A DNA stretch of 64,000 nt, from assembly GCA_963662545.2 (NCBI GenBank), contig CAXXLL010000002.1, positions 1,152,001 to 1,216,000 of the forward strand, given 5' to 3'. The notes under the pieces are model-generated. The model was not told where the DNA came from, made no database searches, and was given only the letters and a program-made list of their open reading frames with translations. Positions 9,417-17,113 of this stretch are shown here, piece by piece (position 1 is the stretch's first letter; each line of letters starts with the position of its first letter). Both the position numbers and the translations under genes were made by a program. This DNA is from Gammaproteobacteria bacterium. GTDB taxonomy: Bacteria > Pseudomonadota > Gammaproteobacteria > Ga0077536.

Positions 9417-9589
9417 AAATATTCCGTCCCTAAATACTCCCTGCGAGTCGGTAGTGTGCGGCGCGCTTTTACGATTCCGATGGAAGACCCAGCGTGTTTA
9501 GTCAAATAAGTCAACTCCGGCACCCGCCCCCCGCACTCGGCGAGTCAGGGCGTTAAGTCCGGTGTCAGGATCCTTCTGGAAATTCCAAT

Positions 9590-9676
9590 GAGCGTAATAT
9601 TGTGCACTTTGCACGGTTTCAAACAGGCGAATGCCGGTTTGATTTCGTGCAATATGCACGCTACTTACTGTTAGGT
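9590..9676 (+). other. Candidate integron attI or atypical attC at the head of the cassette array
   Basis: Long imperfect hairpin GTGCACTTTGCACG..TCAAACAGGC-GAAT-GCCGGTTTGA..CGTGCAATATGCAC followed by core site GTTAGGT (9670-9676) just before the first cassette ORF. Confidence 0.4.
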
Positions 9677-9710: not shown

Positions 9711-10121
9711 ATGAGCCGCAACGGAAAATGTCAATGTGAAGCCTTAACAGTCACGTGCGAGGGCGAACCCCAAATCGTATTTGAGTGTCACTGCCACGCT
9801 TGTCAACGGCGAACCGGCTCAATTATGGCAGTCATTGGTTATTCTCCGAACGAAGGTGTAACTCGTCAAGGTAAATCCAGTGAATACATCCGAATCGGAG
9901 ATGGCGGAAGTAAGATTACGCACTATTTTTGTCCCAACTGTGGGACGACTGTGTACTACGAAGCACCCGAAGTGCTGCCAGGATTAACTGCTGTCGATGT
10001 GGGTTGTTTCAACGATTCGGAATTCCCATCACCAACCATGTCGGTATATGGAAAGCGCCGCTATCATTGGGTATCTCAAATTGAAGGTATACCTAATCTC
10101 GATGGTCCCCCAGATCTCTAA
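9711..10121 (+). CDS. GFA/CENP-V family protein (probable integron cassette)
   Basis: GKCQC, CHCHACQRRTG, FCPNCGT zinc motifs; lies between GTTAGGT and an attC. Confidence 0.88.
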   Translation: MSRNGKCQCEALTVTCEGEPQIVFECHCHACQRRTGSIMAVIGYSPNEGVTRQGKSSEYIRIGDGGSKITHYFCPNCGTTVYYEAPEVLPGLTAVDVGCFNDSEFPSPTMSVYGKRRYHWVSQIEGIPNLDGPPDL

Positions 10122-10149: not shown

Positions 10150-11239
10150 CCCAGATGTCCAAGTGAAGTGCAACAGGGGTGATTAAACTGCTGCATAACA
10201 TTCCTCCGGTGTTTTGACGCCGAGAACCCTTCTCGGACGTGTATTGAGTTTCTTCGCTATCTTATCGCAGTCACGTTGTGTAACGTCTGCCATGGTTTTC
10301 CCTTTGGGCAGGTACTGTCGAATAAGGCCGTTGGTATTTTCATTGGTACCGCGTTCCCAGGAATGATACGGCGTGCAAAAATAGAAGCGAGCGTCGGTCG
10401 CGTTTTCTATCTTCTGGAACTGATGAAACTCAGTTCCATTATCGGCGGTTACGGTTCGCACCAAGCGCATTTCACGTTTGATAAGTTGGATCACTTTGCG
10501 GTTGAGTTCGGCGGTCGTGCGAGCCCGAAGTTTTCCGATTAAGGTATATCGTGTCTTACGTTCAACGAGGGTCACGATGCAGTGACCGTCGTGGCTACCG
10601 ATGACGGTGTCTATTTCCCAATGACCGATGCGGGAACGGTTTTCAGCGCCTGGTGGTCGTTCGGTGATATGGCGCTTTCCTCGCATAACACCGCGAGAAT
10701 CACCGCTGCCGTAGCGTTTCCGTCGTCGTTTTTCCGCCTGTCGCAGATGCTTATATAAGGTGCCGCCGAAGAAGTGGTCGTACCAGATATACCGGTATAG
10801 GGTCTGGTGACTGATTGAAAATATCCGATGACGCTTGAACCAATCCGAGACTTGCTGGGGGCTCCATTCCTCGCGCAGCAAGCGAATGGCGAGACTGAGT
10901 TGTTGGTCGGTGAAATACCATCGTCGGCGAGACTTCGTTCGCCTGCCTCGGGTCATCTCCTCAGCTTCGTCAGGACGATACCGACCGATGCGGCGATTAC
11001 GCTTTAGTTCGCGTCCGATCGTAGACCGATGTCGCCCGAGTTTTCGAGCGACCTCTGCGTTTTTACAGCCTTGCATTTTCAAGGTGTGAAGCATATACCT
11101 CTCTCCAGAGGTGAGCTGGTGATAACTCATCGTAAGTTTCCTATTCTGCCAAGAAGAGAGTGCTTACGAGTATCCCAGCTCGCTTCGTTTAACGCGATAT
11201 AGGGAAATTCTTGTGTTGCACTTACATTGTGAATCCGGG
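10150..11239 (-). mobile_element. IS30 family element, intact transposase 10183-11130
   Basis: HTH start, WSPQQ, GHWEIDT, DNGTEF, SWERGTNENTNGLIRQYLPK; 26-bp imperfect IRs CCCAGATGTCCAAGTGAAGTGCAACA / TGTTGCACTTACATTGTGAATCCGGG. Confidence 0.93.
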
Positions 11240-11241
11240 CC

Positions 11242-11351
11242 ACCTAACAAATGGATCAACCTGACGTGTTATAGCGGGCTCTTTTGGAACGGCTTCGCAT
11301 TTTCGCTTCCAAGAAGCCCGCTATAACACGCAGGTTATCCTAGCGTTAGGC
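11242..11351 (+). other. Integron attC site 1
   Basis: ACCTAAC ... GTTAGGC ends; internal palindrome CGTGTTATAGCGGGCT/AGCCCGCTATAACACG; CGCATTTTCG loop motif shared with the other attCs. Confidence 0.9.
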
Positions 11352-11419
11352 GGCTAGAGACCTTACAAGCATGCGCTAGTCCTTGAGTGAAACACATATT
11401 CCGACGAGGTGTAGAAATT

Positions 11420-11833
11420 GTGAGCGAAGCAGAGCAACTTGAAACCGCAGCACTTTATTTCGACCTCGCGTTAAGTTGTGTGATGCTGTATTTATCGCTA
11501 GTGTCGGGCTACTTGGGCGTAGCACATTTTGTCGGCGCACGACTCAGAAAAGGTCAAGTTATCTTCATCACGTCAATATTCGTGGCGTTCGCGTTGTTTG
11601 CAACATGGGGGTCGTCGGGATTCTTTCTAGTTGCTGAATATTTCTATAGGAACGCCGAGTCATACCAATACTTCCCAACGGACGAGTGGATCCCAGCATA
11701 TGTAATCGTGAGTGTCGTTGAGGCCTTGGGGATCTTGGTTAGTCTTATATTTATGCGGGATATTCGCCTTAAAGCGCCTCAAGCGGACATCAATTCAGAA
11801 AAAGGGAAAGAGAATCAACGCCAAGCCGCCTAA
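11420..11833 (+). CDS. Hypothetical membrane protein (integron cassette)
   Basis: About three hydrophobic segments; stop codon inside the attC R'' box; GTG start after GAGGTG. Confidence 0.75.
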   Translation: MSEAEQLETAALYFDLALSCVMLYLSLVSGYLGVAHFVGARLRKGQVIFITSIFVAFALFATWGSSGFFLVAEYFYRNAESYQYFPTDEWIPAYVIVSVVEALGILVSLIFMRDIRLKAPQADINSEKGKENQRQAA

Positions 11834-11938
11834 CAACGGGATCAACGCGGACCCGTTACAGCACGCTTTTTCGAAGCGGCTTCGCATTTTCGCATCGAAA
11901 AAGCGCGCCATAACGCGCCGGTTATCCCAACGTTAGGC
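11828..11938 (+). other. Integron attC site 2
   Basis: GCCTAAC ... GTTAGGC, imperfect palindrome, CGCATTTTCG motif. Confidence 0.9.
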
Positions 11939-11955
11939 GTCTTGGAGTCGACTGA

Positions 11956-12489
11956 ATGGATTGGACTGCTATAGGTGTTCTCGCGGAAATCATAGCTGCA
12001 GTGGCAGTCGTCACCTCGGTTGTCTATCTCGCCGTCCAAATCCGCGCTTCGATGAAGCAGTCTCAAGCACAATCACACTCAACGATGGTTACGGACTTGG
12101 GACCATTTTTGCAGTGGCAAATTGAAAATCGGGAATTTGCCGAGGTATTTAGAAAAGGGCTCCTAGATTATTCCAGCTTGGATGCCACAGATCGCCTACG
12201 ATTAAGCCACGCGTTCTACCATCTCTTGATGGGCTTCAAAGACACGTTGGAAGCTTACGAGCGCGGCCTTCTTGGAGTTGAAGACTACAAAGCATGGGAA
12301 CGGTACGTAGCGGCGTACCTTAAAATGCCCGGAGGTGGCATTTGGTGGTCTGAAGCGCGGGAAAGTTGGGTGCCAAAAGTTCAACAGCGCATAGATGAAG
12401 CATTATCTAAGGCACGGCCTGTCAATGAGCTTATGCCCACAATCTGGGACGCAAAGAAAACCGAAGGCGACGCTCAAGTTAACAACTGA
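11956..12489 (+). CDS. Hypothetical protein with N-terminal TM helix (integron cassette)
   Basis: MDWTAIGVLAEIIAAVAVVTSVVYLAVQIR; PGG..WW motif; bounded by attC sites. Confidence 0.8.
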   Translation: MDWTAIGVLAEIIAAVAVVTSVVYLAVQIRASMKQSQAQSHSTMVTDLGPFLQWQIENREFAEVFRKGLLDYSSLDATDRLRLSHAFYHLLMGFKDTLEAYERGLLGVEDYKAWERYVAAYLKMPGGGIWWSEARESWVPKVQQRIDEALSKARPVNELMPTIWDAKKTEGDAQVNN

Positions 12490-12501
12490 AATACAACAGC
12501 C

Positions 12502-12600
12502 GCCTAACAAATGGATCAACCGGACACGTTACAGCGCGCTTCTAGTGGAGCAGCTTCGCATTTTCGGTTTCCAAGTGGACACGCCTGAACGCGCCGGTTA
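12502..12600 (+). other. Integron attC site 3, right end lost or garbled at the IS3 junction
   Basis: GCCTAACAAATGGATCAACC matches attC1; CGCATTTTCG present; no GTTRRRY end. Confidence 0.7.
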
Positions 12601-13958
12601 ACTATTCAGGATGAACGTGATTCGCAAGATGTCAAAACCAGGCTTTCTTGCGAGAACGACGTATACGAAATACAGCGTCCGCGTTCGATTCGGAAAGCGA
12701 CAATTAAGCTTGGTCCGAAAAAGTGAACTGCTCACAATGGATGTAGCCATGCGAAGCCAGGATTGTCGACCTGGGCGTCGTCTTGTACATTCAGCGCCCT
12801 TCAGGTTGCTTCCCTCGTTGGCGCAAATGCAATGTGCGCGAGGCTGGGAATGTATCATGGCTAGGATGGAGTGGAAATCGATATCGAAGAAACAGTGCGG
12901 CATCGGAGCTGAAAGCGCTGCGTCACCGGATGAAGAAGGACTACGAGCGTCTAAAAGTGGAGCATGACCTTTTAAAAAGAAGCGATCGAGTTCACTTCCA
13001 AACGAAAAGCGGATGTCTTCGCGTTCATCGACTACCACGTCAAAGAAGGCTATCTCGGTGACGACGATCGGGTCGTGCGTTATACGACGTGCAGGGAGTT
13101 CCAGTGGTTATTACGCCTGGCGGAAACGCCCGCGCAGTCAGCGCTCGATTGAGGACGAGGCGCTGTTGGTTGAGATCCGCGAGGCGCATGCGCTGGGCCG
13201 GAAGACCTATGGGAGTCCGCGTGTACACGAGGTCTTGTTGCAGCGCGGGAGGAAGGTCGGGCGACGCCGGATCGAACGATTGATGCGGGAAAATGGCATT
13301 CGCGGGTGCTCAGCCGACCAGTACCGTCGCACGCCTGGCCTGGACCGCTTCTTTGGTGTGATCGGCAATCGTATACACAAGATGCCGGTGACGGCACCCG
13401 ACCAGGTGTGGGTCTCGGATGTGACCTATGTGAAGGTCAACGCTGAGTGGCGCTATCTGTCGGTGGTATTGGATCGGTACTCACGTCGTCCGGTATTGGC
13501 AGTAAGGTCATTGGGGCGTTTGAGAAGACGGCAGCATTGGACCGGTCGGGCGTTGCATGCCAAGCCCTTTGAAGCTGAGGCGGCCGACAATCCCACCCCG
13601 GGGACCGTATTTCACATCGGTGACCGCGGTTCAGAATATGTGGCTAGCGCTTCAGGCCTGGGTTTTGGGGCTGTTAAGCGCTGGGTAACCGGCACGAAGC
13701 GGGCACGGCGGCCGAGTATGAATCGCCGGCGTCGGATGACGGACAATGCCCTCATGGAGTCATGGAATAAGACGATGAAGTCCGACATGTACCACCGACG
13801 CCTGTTCAGCAGTGACAAACAGCTGCGCGATTCACTGCGTTCCTACATCGACTTCTATAATCGGGTGAGACTACACTCGTCTTTAGGATATCAATCACCG
13901 ATAGCGTTTGAGCAAGCATGCAGCTAACTTATGGGTGTCCACTTTTTCGTAGGAACTT
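12570..13958 (+). mobile_element. IS3 family element, degenerate (orfA from ~12629 fragmented; orfB 13013-13927)
   Basis: YGSPRV, PDQVWVSDVTY, DRGSEY, DNALMESW, FYNRVRLHSSLGYQSP; TTTAAAAAG frameshift window near 12971; right end GGGTGTCCACTTTTTCG; left boundary uncertain. Confidence 0.8.
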
Positions 13959-14061
13959 AGCAAGGCCAGCGGACATTTCACAGCGGGCTTTTCTGGGCCG
14001 GCGTTGCATTTTCGTCCCAGAAAAGCCCGCTGCGAAATGCCGCTGAACTTGGTCGTTAGGC
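13958..14061 (+). other. Integron attC site 4, left end clipped by IS3
   Basis: Palindrome CAGCGGGCTTTTCTGGG/CCCAGAAAAGCCCGCTG ending in GTTAGGC; nearly the same as attC5. Confidence 0.8.
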
Positions 14062-14070
14062 GTCAAGAGA

Positions 14071-14559
14071 ATGAAGCTCGACAAAGCGACGCTCGAAATC
14101 TGGGGGGTAGTTGCCGAAATAGTTGCAGCTCTGGGAGTCATCGTATCCGTTGTATACCTCGCGATACAGATTGGTGAAGGAACCACCGCCCTACAAATGC
14201 AAATGCATCACTATCAACTTGAGAACGTAAACGCTCCAATCGAACATGCCATAGCCGACGAGGGGCTCGCCGAGATAATTACGGTAGGAGTCGAGGATCC
14301 AGACGCTCTATCAAAACCGGACTGGTATCGCTTCTGTTTATTTCAGCTACTCGCGTTCAATAGCTGGGAATACGGTTACCATCTCCATTCAAAAGGGGTG
14401 ACTCCGGAGGAAATTTGGGAGGGTGTCGACGCAGCGTATAAGAACCTAATTCGAACTCAGCCCGGTCTCGCGCGATTTTGGAAGGAATGGAATCACGCGT
14501 ACGGGGGAGCGTTTCATGAGTACGTGGACGCTGAGTTCGCTAAACAAGGAGGTGATTGA
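14071..14559 (+). CDS. Hypothetical protein, same family as 11956-12489 (integron cassette)
   Basis: GVVAEIVAALGVIVSVVYLAIQI and PGLARFW align with the other cassette protein. Confidence 0.8.
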   Translation: MKLDKATLEIWGVVAEIVAALGVIVSVVYLAIQIGEGTTALQMQMHHYQLENVNAPIEHAIADEGLAEIITVGVEDPDALSKPDWYRFCLFQLLAFNSWEYGYHLHSKGVTPEEIWEGVDAAYKNLIRTQPGLARFWKEWNHAYGGAFHEYVDAEFAKQGGD

Positions 14560-14570
14560 TGAAAGTGCCG

Positions 14571-14596
14571 CTTAGGTTACCAAACGAAGTGCAACT
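14571..14596. mobile_element. Isolated IS30-type terminal repeat
   Basis: CTTAGGTTACCAAACGAAGTGCAACT matches 21 of 26 positions of the MITE end at 16664. Confidence 0.5.
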
Positions 14597-14647
14597 GAAC
14601 ACTCTGGAAAATGCAAAAGAAATATGGCCGAAACTTCGTTAAACGCC

Positions 14648-15969
14648 TGAGCGGACCGGGAGAAAGGTAACAAAAGTGCCAAGGTAGATGGGTAACACTT
14701 TTGTTATCGATAATGTCGTTTTAGTCGGCCGTAAGCATCTTCGATCCGATTGTATTTTTCAATCATTCGGCCGAGCTTAAGCGTTCCGAAATAGACGTTC
14801 CAAACACCACAGTCGATTTCCTCTAATCCTATGTACTCACCGGCACACGCGATTGAGACAGGCACATGGGTGGAATGCCATCGGATGCCACCGTTGGCAC
14901 TGACGAAGCGCTTGATGAAACGGTCAGGATATTCGAGCGGCGGGATTTTGCTAGGCATTTCTTTGGCAGAAAATTCGTAGAAGTCGGCAGGTGTGAACAT
15001 GTCGAGCGCTTCATGAGGGCGTTCTTCATTGAATTCAATCTGGAACCGATTAAATCGTTTCTGTTGCGCGCGATAGTCCCCGGCCGGAGGTCGAGTCGTC
15101 TCCGCCTTTAAGGTTCGGTGCATCCGTTCGTGTCGGCCATTTTGTTGAGGCTTTCCGGGTTCGATGAGCTCGGGATAAATACCAAGCCTGATCCACCAGG
15201 CAGACAGCGTTGATAATCGACCGAGCGTGTTCGTCGCGAAGGGGACGCCGTTGTCGGTACGGATGCGTTCTGGCAGTCCGTATTCTTTGAATAAGCGGGT
15301 GAACACCGCCTTCGATGGTTCAACGGCGGTCGTGAGTAATGACTGGCATCCGATGAGGTATCGACTAAAGCCATCGGTGACGGTCAACGGGTAACAATAC
15401 CGCCCGTCTTCGGTCTTGAAATGCCCTTTGAAGTCGGCGCCCCAGGTTTGGTTGGGTGCATTCATTCGGGTTTCAGGTTTTCCCGGATGCCCGAGTTTGC
15501 GTGAGCGCCGCGGTGTCCGGATGAATCCTTCACGGATTAGGATGTCATGAATGGTTGTCCGTGTTGGCCACGGCTCTCGCGGGTGCTTCCGCGATAGAAA
15601 CGTCCGCAATTTACGAGCGCCCCAAGTCGGATGACGTTGTCGCGCATCGATGATCAGGCGCTCGAGCCGCGCCGGCGTTTTATGCGGGCAAGTTCTAGGC
15701 CGCCGTGTGCGTTCCTCTAAACCCGCCGGACCTTCGCTTAGATACCGATCAATCCATTTGTAGCCAGTCTTGCGACTGATGCCGTAATGTTCGCACAGCT
15801 CGGTAACTGTCAACAGGTCGCGCAGATAGTCTGCGATGAATTGCGTTTTTTCGTTCATTGGTGACGTTTCTCTCCAGGGCATCGGACTCCTCCTTTGAGG
15901 AACCTAATACCATTGATCTGTCACCCATGTACCTTGACTATAATGTTACCTATGTACCCGGTCCGTACC
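14648..15969 (-). mobile_element. IS481 family element, transposase 14704-15882
   Basis: MPWRETSPM start, WGADFKG, TDNGVPFA, PQQNGRHERMHRTLK; IRs TGAGCGGACCGGG..GGTAACA / TGTTACC..CCCGGTCCGTACC with internal repeats. Confidence 0.92.
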
Positions 15970-15977
15970 GAGCCGCC

Positions 15978-16088
15978 GCCTAACAAGGCGCTGAACCGGA
16001 CGTTTCACAGCGGGCTTTCTTGGGCCGGCTGCGCATTTTCGTCCCAAGAAAGCCCGCTGCGAAACGCCGGTTAGCTTGGTCGTTAGGT
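15978..16088 (+). other. Integron attC site 5
   Basis: GCCTAAC ... GTTAGGT, palindrome CAGCGGGCTTTCTTGGG/CCCAAGAAAGCCCGCTG. Confidence 0.9.
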
Positions 16089-16131
16089 CGAGAGACAATT
16101 TGTTGCCGGTCTTAAGAAAGGAAAACAAACC

Positions 16132-16623
16132 ATGAAAGAAGGACACTACGTGCTGAAGCCCGAGCAGCGCCCCGCTCCGCTTGACGTTGTTGGAACGAAA
16201 GTAACTATTTTGGCGTCCTCTTCTGAAACAGGGACCTACGGAATAACATTTCAGAAGGGCGAAGAAGGCTCGGGCCCACCGCCGCACTGCCACGATTGGG
16301 ATGAGGCTTTCTATGTCATTTCCGGAGAAGTTAATTTCGAATGTGCCGGTGAATAACATTTCAGAAGGGCGAAGAAGGCTCGGGCCCACCGCCGCACTGC
16401 CACGCATCATCGATGCGTAGCAGGAACGATGGTACATATTCCACGAAATACTGTGCACGGGTTCAATTACGGGGAAGGCGGTGGGACGATGATGGAAGTC
16501 ACAAGCCGGGACAGTACAGCGGCAGAAATGTTCACCGCTTTTGACGCAGAAATCGATGCCGAAACGGACATAGCGACTACTCTGGCTCTTCTGAAAAAGA
16601 ATGGCGTTACTGTCGTTACTTAG
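16132..16623 (+). pseudogene. Cupin domain cassette gene disrupted by a 54-bp internal duplication
   Basis: PPPHCHDWDEAFYVISGE and HIPRNTVHGF are split into two ORFs; 16241-16294 is repeated at 16351-16404, introducing TAA. Confidence 0.82.
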
Positions 16624-16663
16624 CAAACTCAAGCAATTTGCAGCAGAAACCAAGCGGGTTCGA

Positions 16664-16842
16664 CTTAGATTTCCAAGTGAAGTGCAACAAACATAATGCT
16701 GGAGTCACGCGCAAATTGCGAGAATAAATCACGACGCGTATCGCGCAGCCTATTGTTCTACCTGCAGATTTTTCGTGATCCTCTTGCAAGCTATTGAGGA
16801 GCATGAAAAACCTGCGTGTTGCACTTACTTTGTGAATCCGGG
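16664..16842. mobile_element. 179-bp MITE with IS30-type ends
   Basis: CTTAGATTTCCAAGTGAAGTGCAACA and TGTTGCACTTACTTTGTGAATCCGGG closely match the IRs of the IS30 at 10150-11239; no transposase. Confidence 0.85.
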
Positions 16843-16844
16843 AA

Positions 16845-16870
16845 GCTTAACAAACCAACGAACCCGACAC
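16845..16870 (+). other. Truncated attC (left end only)
   Basis: GCTTAACAAACCAACGAACCCGAC resembles R''/L'' boxes; no right half follows. Confidence 0.45.
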
Positions 16871-17113
16871 TTGACCGCGCCCTTCCTTGATGGTCCCAGT
16901 TTCGCGAGATATCGTGAAATGGTCGTTAATATGTGTTTCGTCCACTCGAAGCTTCGGGCTACTAAGTGACTCGTCCACGTCTTCTGCTTTAACCCTCATG
17001 CCGTCCGTAACAGTGCAACGGTACTCGAACTCACCGCTCCTGCTGACGCAAGGAGTCGCTAAGGAAGCAAAGAGACAAATATTGCAAACCGTTCGCAGCA
17101 AAAACTTCTTCAC
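16847..17113 (-). CDS. Hypothetical secreted protein, probably 3'-truncated
   Basis: Signal-peptide-like N-terminus; ends inside the attC remnant. Confidence 0.4.
   Translation of the reverse strand: MKKFLLRTVCNICLFASLATPCVSRSGEFEYRCTVTDGMRVKAEDVDESLSSPKLRVDETHINDHFTISRETGTIKEGRGQVSGSLVC

Follow-up and report, generated by a model that had tools for sequence, protein, structure and literature searches.

An IS30-family element at the edge of an attC site

The window analysed here is a stretch of 64,000 nucleotides of a Gammaproteobacteria bacterium (contig CAXXLL010000002.1, positions 1,152,001 to 1,216,000). Between 9.5 and 17 kb it holds an integron cassette array that has no integrase gene and consists of attC sites with open reading frames (ORFs) between them (Table 1). 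Four mobile elements are lodged in this array: an insertion sequence (IS) of the IS30 family, an IS3-family element, an IS481-like element with a mini-element in front of it, and a miniature inverted-repeat transposable element (MITE). The IS30-family element is the subject of this report. It begins 28 nt after the stop codon of a cassette ORF of the GFA family and ends just before the R'' box of the attC that belongs to this cassette. Since an attC has a similar box at both ends, R'' and R', the side on which an element inserts matters. The transposase of the clade to which this element belongs probably picks the outer edge of the R'' box as its target, a reading to which we give a probability of about 0.85 from the sequence comparisons set out below. 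The host genome (5.58 Mb in three contigs, C2 and C3 among them) has 56 attC loci in about ten clusters, as counted with a profile built from the window's own sites, and two integron integrases above the TIGR02249 cut-off (C2:996723 and C3:1527239, 462 and 461 bits), neither of them in the window.

The element is a regular IS30-family member by every feature tested. Its length and its 26-bp repeats lie within the sizes usual for the family (about 1-1.25 kb and about 20-30 bp), and a single ORF with an N-terminal helix-turn-helix and an rve core, the DDE core being assigned by domain match, fills the element except for 109 nt and 33 nt of non-coding DNA. A 3-bp target duplication, where the family makes 2-3 bp, is seen as a CCA pair, as CAT at a copy of the MITE, and at 12 of 30 relatives. 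The relatives are named 'IS30 family transposase' by their source records. The edges of the element are given by three further copies that are more than 99% identical and have unrelated left flanks, diverging at 10150; its transposase-distal repeat (IRR) is in the register common to relatives, with a GCAAC core that ends at repeat position 25. An intact transposase is encoded by the window copy, by the copy at C3:357k (identical protein) and by a divergent copy, and two copies have a TAG stop. A 17-nt core of the element's end, CCAAGTGAAGTGCAACA, has three matches in the window at up to three mismatches (10159, 14580 and 16673), against a mean of 0.12 in shuffled sequence; three matches were reached in 0 of 100 shuffles.

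At the junction with the attC, GAATCCGGG ends at 11239 and is followed by CC and, from 11242, by ACCTAAC. The same GAATCCGGG ends the MITE at 16842 and is followed by AA and, from 16845, by GCTTAAC. A sequence-only reading of the window had pointed out both junctions, with the same spacing and orientation, and its letters and coordinates are correct. The attC at 11242 is bona fide and scores best of the 56 loci in the genome. It is 110 nt long with complementary end boxes (R'' ACCTAAC, R' GTTAGGC), and its R''-L'' (5') arm carries two bulged bases, C at position 16 and A at position 23, whereas the 3' arm has none. Bulges at such positions are the hallmark of the R''-L'' arm.

The host genome has five copies of the element with unrelated left flanks, including one that is 69% identical in DNA. 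All five show the same order: the transposase-proximal repeat (IRL), two nucleotides (CC or TC), ACCTAAC and the attC, and the IS always lies on the R'' side, between a cassette ORF and its attC. Four of the adjoining attCs are of full length (100-113 bits), and the one beside copy C3b has its centre deleted. One of the copies, C3:357492-358581, can be compared with a paralogous site at C3:908 kb that is empty; their flanks show 98.5% identity over 749 bp and 97.2% over 616 bp. Without the IS the sequence is ...CATCAT-CCA-CCTAAC..., and with it CCA-IS-CCA-CCTAAC. The repeated CCA shows that the element transposed there and duplicated 3 bp, and that the R'' box and the attC stayed whole. This paralog of another copy supplies the empty allele by which the sequence-only reading had hoped to define the target duplication. 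For the window copy, which is flanked by TCA on the left and CCA on the right, an imperfect duplication, no empty allele was found: the 550 nt to the left of the IS, searched against the host's own genome and 30 relatives, gave no orthologous GFA cassette, and only the attI-like stretch was matched in these 31 genomes.

The limits of the MITE are set by a 100% identical copy at C2:1579642-1579820; a further copy (87%) lies at C2:1373290-1373482. Its ends agree with those of the IS at 25 of 26 positions (IRL type) and at 22 of 26 (IRR type). It is short and non-coding, has the same terminal repeats and duplication, and occurs in multiple copies. Judged by these features, the MITE is a non-autonomous derivative of the IS, and it would be mobilised by the same transposase. 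The claim that it, too, sits beside an attC stands only in part. The R''-like box fits the target consensus given below, but the sequence that follows does not look like a functional attC: its match to the attC profile covers only model positions 2-65 and scores 6.6 bits, and there is no significant hairpin (fold z-score -0.4). It is at best a decayed attC. The MITE itself was flagged as an attC by the hairpin detector (16682-16824, a 143-nt hairpin of -49 kcal/mol), which was judged a coincidence. Its repeat cores, GTGCAAC ... GTTGCAC, are one mismatch from R'' and R'; this likeness is probably coincidental as well, because the core also occurs in two more distant relatives from other genomes (L048 and L055) at no R''-like box.

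Table 1. Features of the cassette array, in positions of the window
Feature	Position	Strand	Remarks
attI-like sequence opening the array	9553..9673	+	about 120 nt conserved with 3 other places in the genome
Cassette ORF, GFA family, 136 aa, intact	9711..10121	+	Pfam PF04828, E 6e-26
IS30-family insertion sequence, 1090 bp	10150..11239	-	boundaries from copies and filled/empty paralog pair
IRR, transposase-distal 26-bp inverted repeat	10150..10175	+	19/26 positions match IRL
Transposase, 315 aa, intact	10183..11130	-	PF13936 HTH_38 (7.8e-13), PF00665 rve (6.2e-9)
IRL, transposase-proximal inverted repeat, faces attC	11214..11239	-	type ...GRATTCAYAAACTAAGTGCAAC conserved in relatives
Position of 3-bp target duplication (CCA)	11240..11242	+	2 spacer bases and first R'' base
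attC of GFA cassette, intact	11242..11351	+	profile 113 bits, hairpin -61.5 kcal/mol, bulges
attC	11828-11938		array site
attC, truncated	12502-12604		array site
IS3-family element, orfA/orfB with frameshift	~12566-13957		sits between two truncated attCs
attC, truncated	13955-14062		array site
77-nt mini-element, left end IRR-type box CTTAGGTTACCAAACGAAGTGCAAC	14571..14647	+	box match at 3 mismatches
IS481-like insertion sequence	14648..15969	-	392-aa transposase at 14704-15882; Pfam rve, rve_3, LZ_Tnp_IS481; 7 genome copies
attC	15978..16088	+	profile, fold
MITE with IS30-type ends, 179 bp	16664..16842	-	IRL-type end faces R''-like box
R''-like box GCTTAAC and sequence that is at best decayed attC	16845..16934	+	fits target consensus NNR^YYTAACMA

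Relatives of the element in other genomes

Homologous proteins are numerous, with more than 8000 scored. A scan of one genome per species gave 79 loci encoding relatives, of which 63 were screened; the 16 omitted have a match that is N-terminally truncated or very remote (L034, L037, L039, L045, L049, L051, L052, L056, L057, L072-L074 and L076-L079). The conserved IRL-type end (...GRATTCAYAAACTAAGTGCAAC) is carried by 49 of the 63. The 14 loci without it are eight Bacillota rows (L064-L071, 30-31% identical) and L002, L028, L040, L047, L048 and L060. One flank among the 49 was too short and one match was spurious, which leaves 47 usable flanks, 44 of them distinct; the relatives with these distinct flanks are 40-60% identical. 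At an offset of 2 nt from IRL, RYYYAAC is found strictly in 16 of the 44 distinct flanks and with at most one mismatch in 27, and AAC stands at positions 7-9 in 31. No such box occurs at offsets 0, 1, 3, 4, 5 or 7, and offset 6 has one strict box and two within one mismatch. On the IRR side, a box of the RYYYAAC type was found in 0 of 30 at offsets 0-7. The consensus after IRL is nc-GCCTAAC-AAGC, with T6 conserved in 26 flanks, A7 in 37, A8 in 34, C9 in 38 and A11 in 33. With both termini set by the shared register of the inverted repeats, perfect 3-bp duplications are present at the predicted place at 12 of the 30 testable loci, where chance would give each of them with a frequency of 1/64.

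Full attC-like hairpins start at the box at offset 2 at 14 loci by strict and at 22 by relaxed criteria. They are 86-160 nt long and have complementary end boxes but unrelated centres. Arrays of 3-6 attC-like sites surround L007, L008, L023, L030, L031 and L062. The IS-proximal arm has single-base bulges where the host's attCs have them, at positions 16-17 and 23; among the 22 hairpins, the proximal arm has more bulges in 14, the distal arm in 1, and the two are equal in 7. At the loci with clear ORFs (L008, L014, L023 and L026) the cassettes run antisense to the transposase gene, as in the window. Hosts of elements with an R''-like box, by their record titles, belong to Pseudomonadota, Verrucomicrobiota, Gemmatimonadota, Acidobacteriota, Actinomycetota and Myxococcota, with one Paceibacterota bin.

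In a transposase tree of 45 rows, all 22 rows labelled as attC-associated fall into one group of 38, and none of the 7 rows outside it is labelled. These seven are distant IS30-family rows, all without the IRL type or an R''-like box, from which the clade is set apart; E. coli IS30 was outside the sample. Labelled and unlabelled rows are interspersed within the group, which suggests that the attC habit belongs to the clade and that the exceptions are occasional off-target copies. Among 60 other genomes of the host's family, nine loci were found in eight genomes (L114-L119 being read by eye). AAC is at the right offset in six of the nine, and two of these six also have short attC hairpins.

The nearest named relatives are ISVa6 and ISVvu6 of Vibrio, at about 51% amino-acid identity and known by product names in plasmid records. 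The ISVa6-like element differs from that of the window in its IRL terminus (CTTGGATTCAA) and in its target, R'' boxes of the Vibrio type (ATAAC). It has 14 full copies in V. campbellii NZ_CP050465.1, and 11 of these lie 2 nt from a Vibrio-type attC, of at least two subtypes. In its available text, the paper that names ISVa6 lists the element and describes the superintegron separately, without linking the two (PMC4572688).

The sequence-only reading had proposed that the element chooses the attC boundary in one orientation and leaves the ORF and the attC intact, and it had named unrelated sites or variable distances among other copies as the outcome that would speak against it. Both parts held up well. 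The five copies in the genome, 27 of the 44 flanks, 11 of the 14 Vibrio copies and the target duplications agree with the proposed site, and the distance is fixed at 2 nt, with nothing at the other offsets from 0 to 5.

One locus that is apparently not at an attC bears on the same target. L010, in a Spartobacteria bin, has a clean 3-bp duplication (ATC) at TCCAAACAA, beside what appears to be the T-arm end of a tRNA gene, upstream of the IS, and not an attC. The site contains AAC, and the detector found no hairpin there.

Choice of target, alternatives and known systems

In the mechanism proposed here, a staggered cut would span the two bases before R'' and the first base of R'', within a target of the consensus 5'-NNR^YYTAAC(A/C)A, that is, R'' plus the first spacer bases. 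Insertion leaves a complete R'' and attC on one side and an untouched cassette ORF on the other. It is polar, with IRL always toward the attC and the transposase gene reading away from the attC, antisense to the cassettes. The determinant would be mainly the duplex sequence of R'' and the first spacer bases, recognition of a folded site being less likely, and the motif is probably read by the transposase itself. In reverse complement, the R' end reads RYYYAAC followed by G or C, unlike the R'' end, and this difference would explain the polarity without any sensing of the fold.

Several observations weigh against this reading. The case is built from the present positions of copies. A matching duplication is found in just one of the five copies in the host genome, so that the independence of the copies is unclear; its lack in the other four points to later exchange between them. 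The four full attCs beside the IS (C3:1931942, C3:1935735, C3:1924287 and 11242 of the window) are unusually alike, with a mean identity of 93.4% against a background of 81.1%. Only 11 of 100000 random attC quartets were as alike, although one 99% pair 3.8 kb apart accounts for most of this. There are exceptions to the rule: 17 of the 44 distinct flanks are more than one mismatch from RYYYAAC and 13 lack AAC, 3 of the 14 V. campbellii copies are situated elsewhere, 3 of the 9 same-family loci have no AAC at the right offset, and the MITE copy at C2:1579642-1579820 has its clean CAT duplication at a site unlike an attC. The host genome contains 62 occurrences of RCCTAACAA, of which 32 fall at attC loci, and 192 of RYYTAACMA, of which 42 do. 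With so many motifs outside attCs, the data from this genome alone cannot separate recognition of a motif from recognition of an attC; recognition may extend no further than a short motif of about 9 bp. Hairpins and bulges were called with a purpose-made simple detector and not with IntegronFinder, the comparison loci are mostly from metagenome bins, and the 38-row group of the tree has a support of 92/88, which is under the tool's starred threshold.

Much of the pattern could also arise if the transposase recognised a folded or cruciform attC and inserted at the base of its stem, taking its polarity from the extrahelical bases of the R''-L'' arm. Insertion falls exactly at the hairpin's foot, the junction is constant although the attC centres are unrelated between genomes, and the IS-proximal arm is the bulged one in 14 of 22 hairpins, with one reversed. 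Other members of the IS30 family, moreover, prefer palindromic targets. Such recognition is nevertheless unlikely, if worth serious consideration, given the strong conservation of the bases just inside the target (T6, A7, A8, C9 and A11), the clean duplication at an AAC site without a detected hairpin in L010, the host copy C3b that adjoins an attC without its centre, and the MITE at an R''-like box without a significant fold. DDE strand transfer with a 3-bp stagger also needs a duplex target. An insertion that is untargeted, with only those copies surviving selection that fell into the short neutral gap between stop codon and attC, is hardly credible. Arrays clearly do accumulate ISs at such places, as is seen here in two other families, with all seven IS481-like copies 8-9 nt before R'' and three IS3-like copies fused to attC interiors. 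Selection, however, cannot yield an offset exact to the nucleotide (27 of 44 flanks at 2 nt, none at 0, 1, 3, 4 or 5) or a single orientation, nor one rule across six or seven phyla whose attC families differ. The attC would be equally unharmed by an insertion just beyond R', yet IRR is never beside an R-type box (0 of 30).

It is also improbable, to a marked degree, that the R''-like box or the whole attC is part of the mobile unit and that a block of IS plus attC has been spread by the integron integrase or by gene conversion. The likeness of the IS-adjacent attCs, which includes a common central signature, would fit such a block, as would the end of the conserved block at R' and three copies in one metagenome bin that have near-identical adjacent attCs. 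Against it, the empty paralogous site already holds CCA-CCTAAC and the rest of the site, 3-bp duplications enclose the IS alone at 12 loci, and copies with the same IRL but no R'' box (L053, L058 and L059) diverge exactly at the IS terminus. From host to host the adjacent attCs differ, each being of the type of its own array, those occupied in Vibrio are of at least two subtypes, and unoccupied attCs with the same 25-nt R''-L'' arm are present in the host genome. On this evidence, the IS-adjacent attCs were rejected as a separate, IS-carried family for the main explanation. Gene conversion between IS copies that extends into the adjacent attC could explain the 99% pair and would leave the model of a targeted R'' edge unchanged.

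Known attC-targeting elements offer a comparison. The IS1111-attC group of the IS110/IS1111 family (ISPst6, ISKpn4) inserts at a specific place, in one orientation, at one end of attC (PMC11187229, PMC11089894). Its enzymes are DEDD transposases guided by an element-encoded seekRNA (PMC11187229), and a 2024 survey, in its available text, names IS1111-attC alone as attC-targeting ISs (PMC11089894). The IS30 element resembles this group in its fixed place and single orientation at one attC end. It differs in its rve/HTH_38 transposase and has neither a DEDD domain nor a long seekRNA region; a guide RNA would hardly fit into its 109 and 33 nt of non-coding DNA. IS1111-type elements insert inside the attC and are not known to make a target duplication, whereas the IS30 element inserts 2 nt outside R'', duplicates 3 bp and leaves the attC whole. 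Group IIC-attC introns are also attC specialists that insert in one orientation at the R'' side; they are retroelements, with a ribozyme and a reverse transcriptase, which insert within the site on one strand. The IS30 element, in contrast, is a cut-or-copy DNA transposon with inverted repeats and a target duplication. It shares with E. coli IS30 and other characterised members of that family the single ORF, the N-terminal helix-turn-helix, the rve core, repeats of about 26 bp and a 2-3-bp duplication. Marked target preferences are a known trait of the family and include palindromic hot spots, its own inverted repeats and, for IS1630, terminator hairpins.

No report of attC targeting by IS30-family elements was found in a search of full texts; subscription journals, ISfinder notes and supplementary files were outside its scope, so that an earlier remark may exist. 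As far as found, fixed polar insertion at the attC edge by an element of this family is apparently new among attC-targeting mobile elements, and the IS30-family element looks like a third, apparently undescribed kind of integron-specialised mobile element. With moderate confidence we favour the wider view that the clade, present in at least six phyla and including the ISVa6 type of Vibrio superintegrons, is a third and unrecognised attC-specific class, which inserts outside the site so that the cassette stays mobile and the transposon becomes its cargo, and whose copies fragment arrays. If a DDE transposon can locate attC with no guide RNA, three unrelated mechanisms have independently come to target this site. 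Such an element would also be a compact, protein-only system in which to learn how single-base precision and polarity are achieved when a transposase recognises about 9 bp or the foot of a hairpin.

Adaptive and resistance genes have one of their chief reservoirs in integron arrays, whose growth, breakage and spread are shaped by specialist mobile elements. As the attC survives insertion, IS-bearing cassettes should remain excisable. Because the IS lies inside the cassette boundaries, it could be carried when the integrase excises the cassette, which is topologically possible; no IS-bearing cassette was seen in two contexts. Cassettes of this kind would be 1.1 kb longer, would move the IS between hosts, and would place outward-facing IS ends beside the next cassette. 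Directly oriented copies provide substrates for the kinds of deletion and rearrangement that are thought to create integrase-less attC clusters, and recombination between copies probably helps to break arrays into such clusters. The host genome has two integrases for its roughly ten scattered attC clusters and four attI-like copies. For annotation, an attC may be predicted beside IS ends of this type, and genes for an 'IS30 family transposase' inside arrays are invaders and not cassette genes.

Other mobile elements and features of the array

The sequence-only reading had listed a third IS30-type end at 14571. An IRR-type box does stand there, after a stop codon (14557-14559) and GTGCCG, but it is of the wrong type and at a different spacing, and it is not an end that abuts an attC. 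It is the left end of a 77-nt mini-element with relatives at C2:1372505, C2:439854 and C3:1720673, a family that sits a few bases upstream of attCs. In the window the mini-element is abutted on its right by the IS481-like element, which parts it from the attC at 15978. Boxes of the IRR type, 26 bp long (CTTAGATTTCCAAGTGAAGTGCAACA), also occur alone, immediately upstream of the R'' of attCs at C3:1524958, C3:2546227, C2:985967, C2:994934, C3:1926320 and other places, and shorter (A/G)TGCAAC remnants precede about eight further attCs. The IS30 copy at C3:1934642 abuts such a solo box on its left flank. Such boxes could be what is left of deleted elements, or they could act as decoys for the transposase.

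The right end of the IS481-like element (...GGTCCGTACC) lies 8-9 nt upstream of an attC R'' in 7 of 7 copies, and the mini-element end precedes three of them. In the window the distance to the R'' at 15978 is 8 nt; the other copies are at C2:438447, C2:989375, C2:2113799, C3:1720748, C3:1926344 and C3:1916616. The attCs beside these copies also cluster, at 95-97%. A second and unrelated IS family, the IS481-like one, appears also to be specialised on the border between cassette and attC. The right end of the IS3-family element (...CGTAGGAACT) is fused to the inside of an attC, near profile position 24, in 3 of 3 copies (the others at C3:1920451-1921650 and C3:1942368-1943353).

The attI-like sequence that opens the array has internal GTGCA-type repeats and ends at GTT (near 9670 in the window), beyond which the copies diverge. 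Besides that of the window there are copies at C3:1526940, C3:1719887 and C2:1369999, and one in a relative (G002:C49:33403). Only one of the four copies in the genome is beside an integrase gene, about 230 nt upstream of it, so that the window array and two others begin with an orphan attI. A cupin cassette gene of the window has a 54-nt direct duplication (16241-16294 and 16351-16404), which splits it into ORFs at 16132-16356 and 16429-16623.

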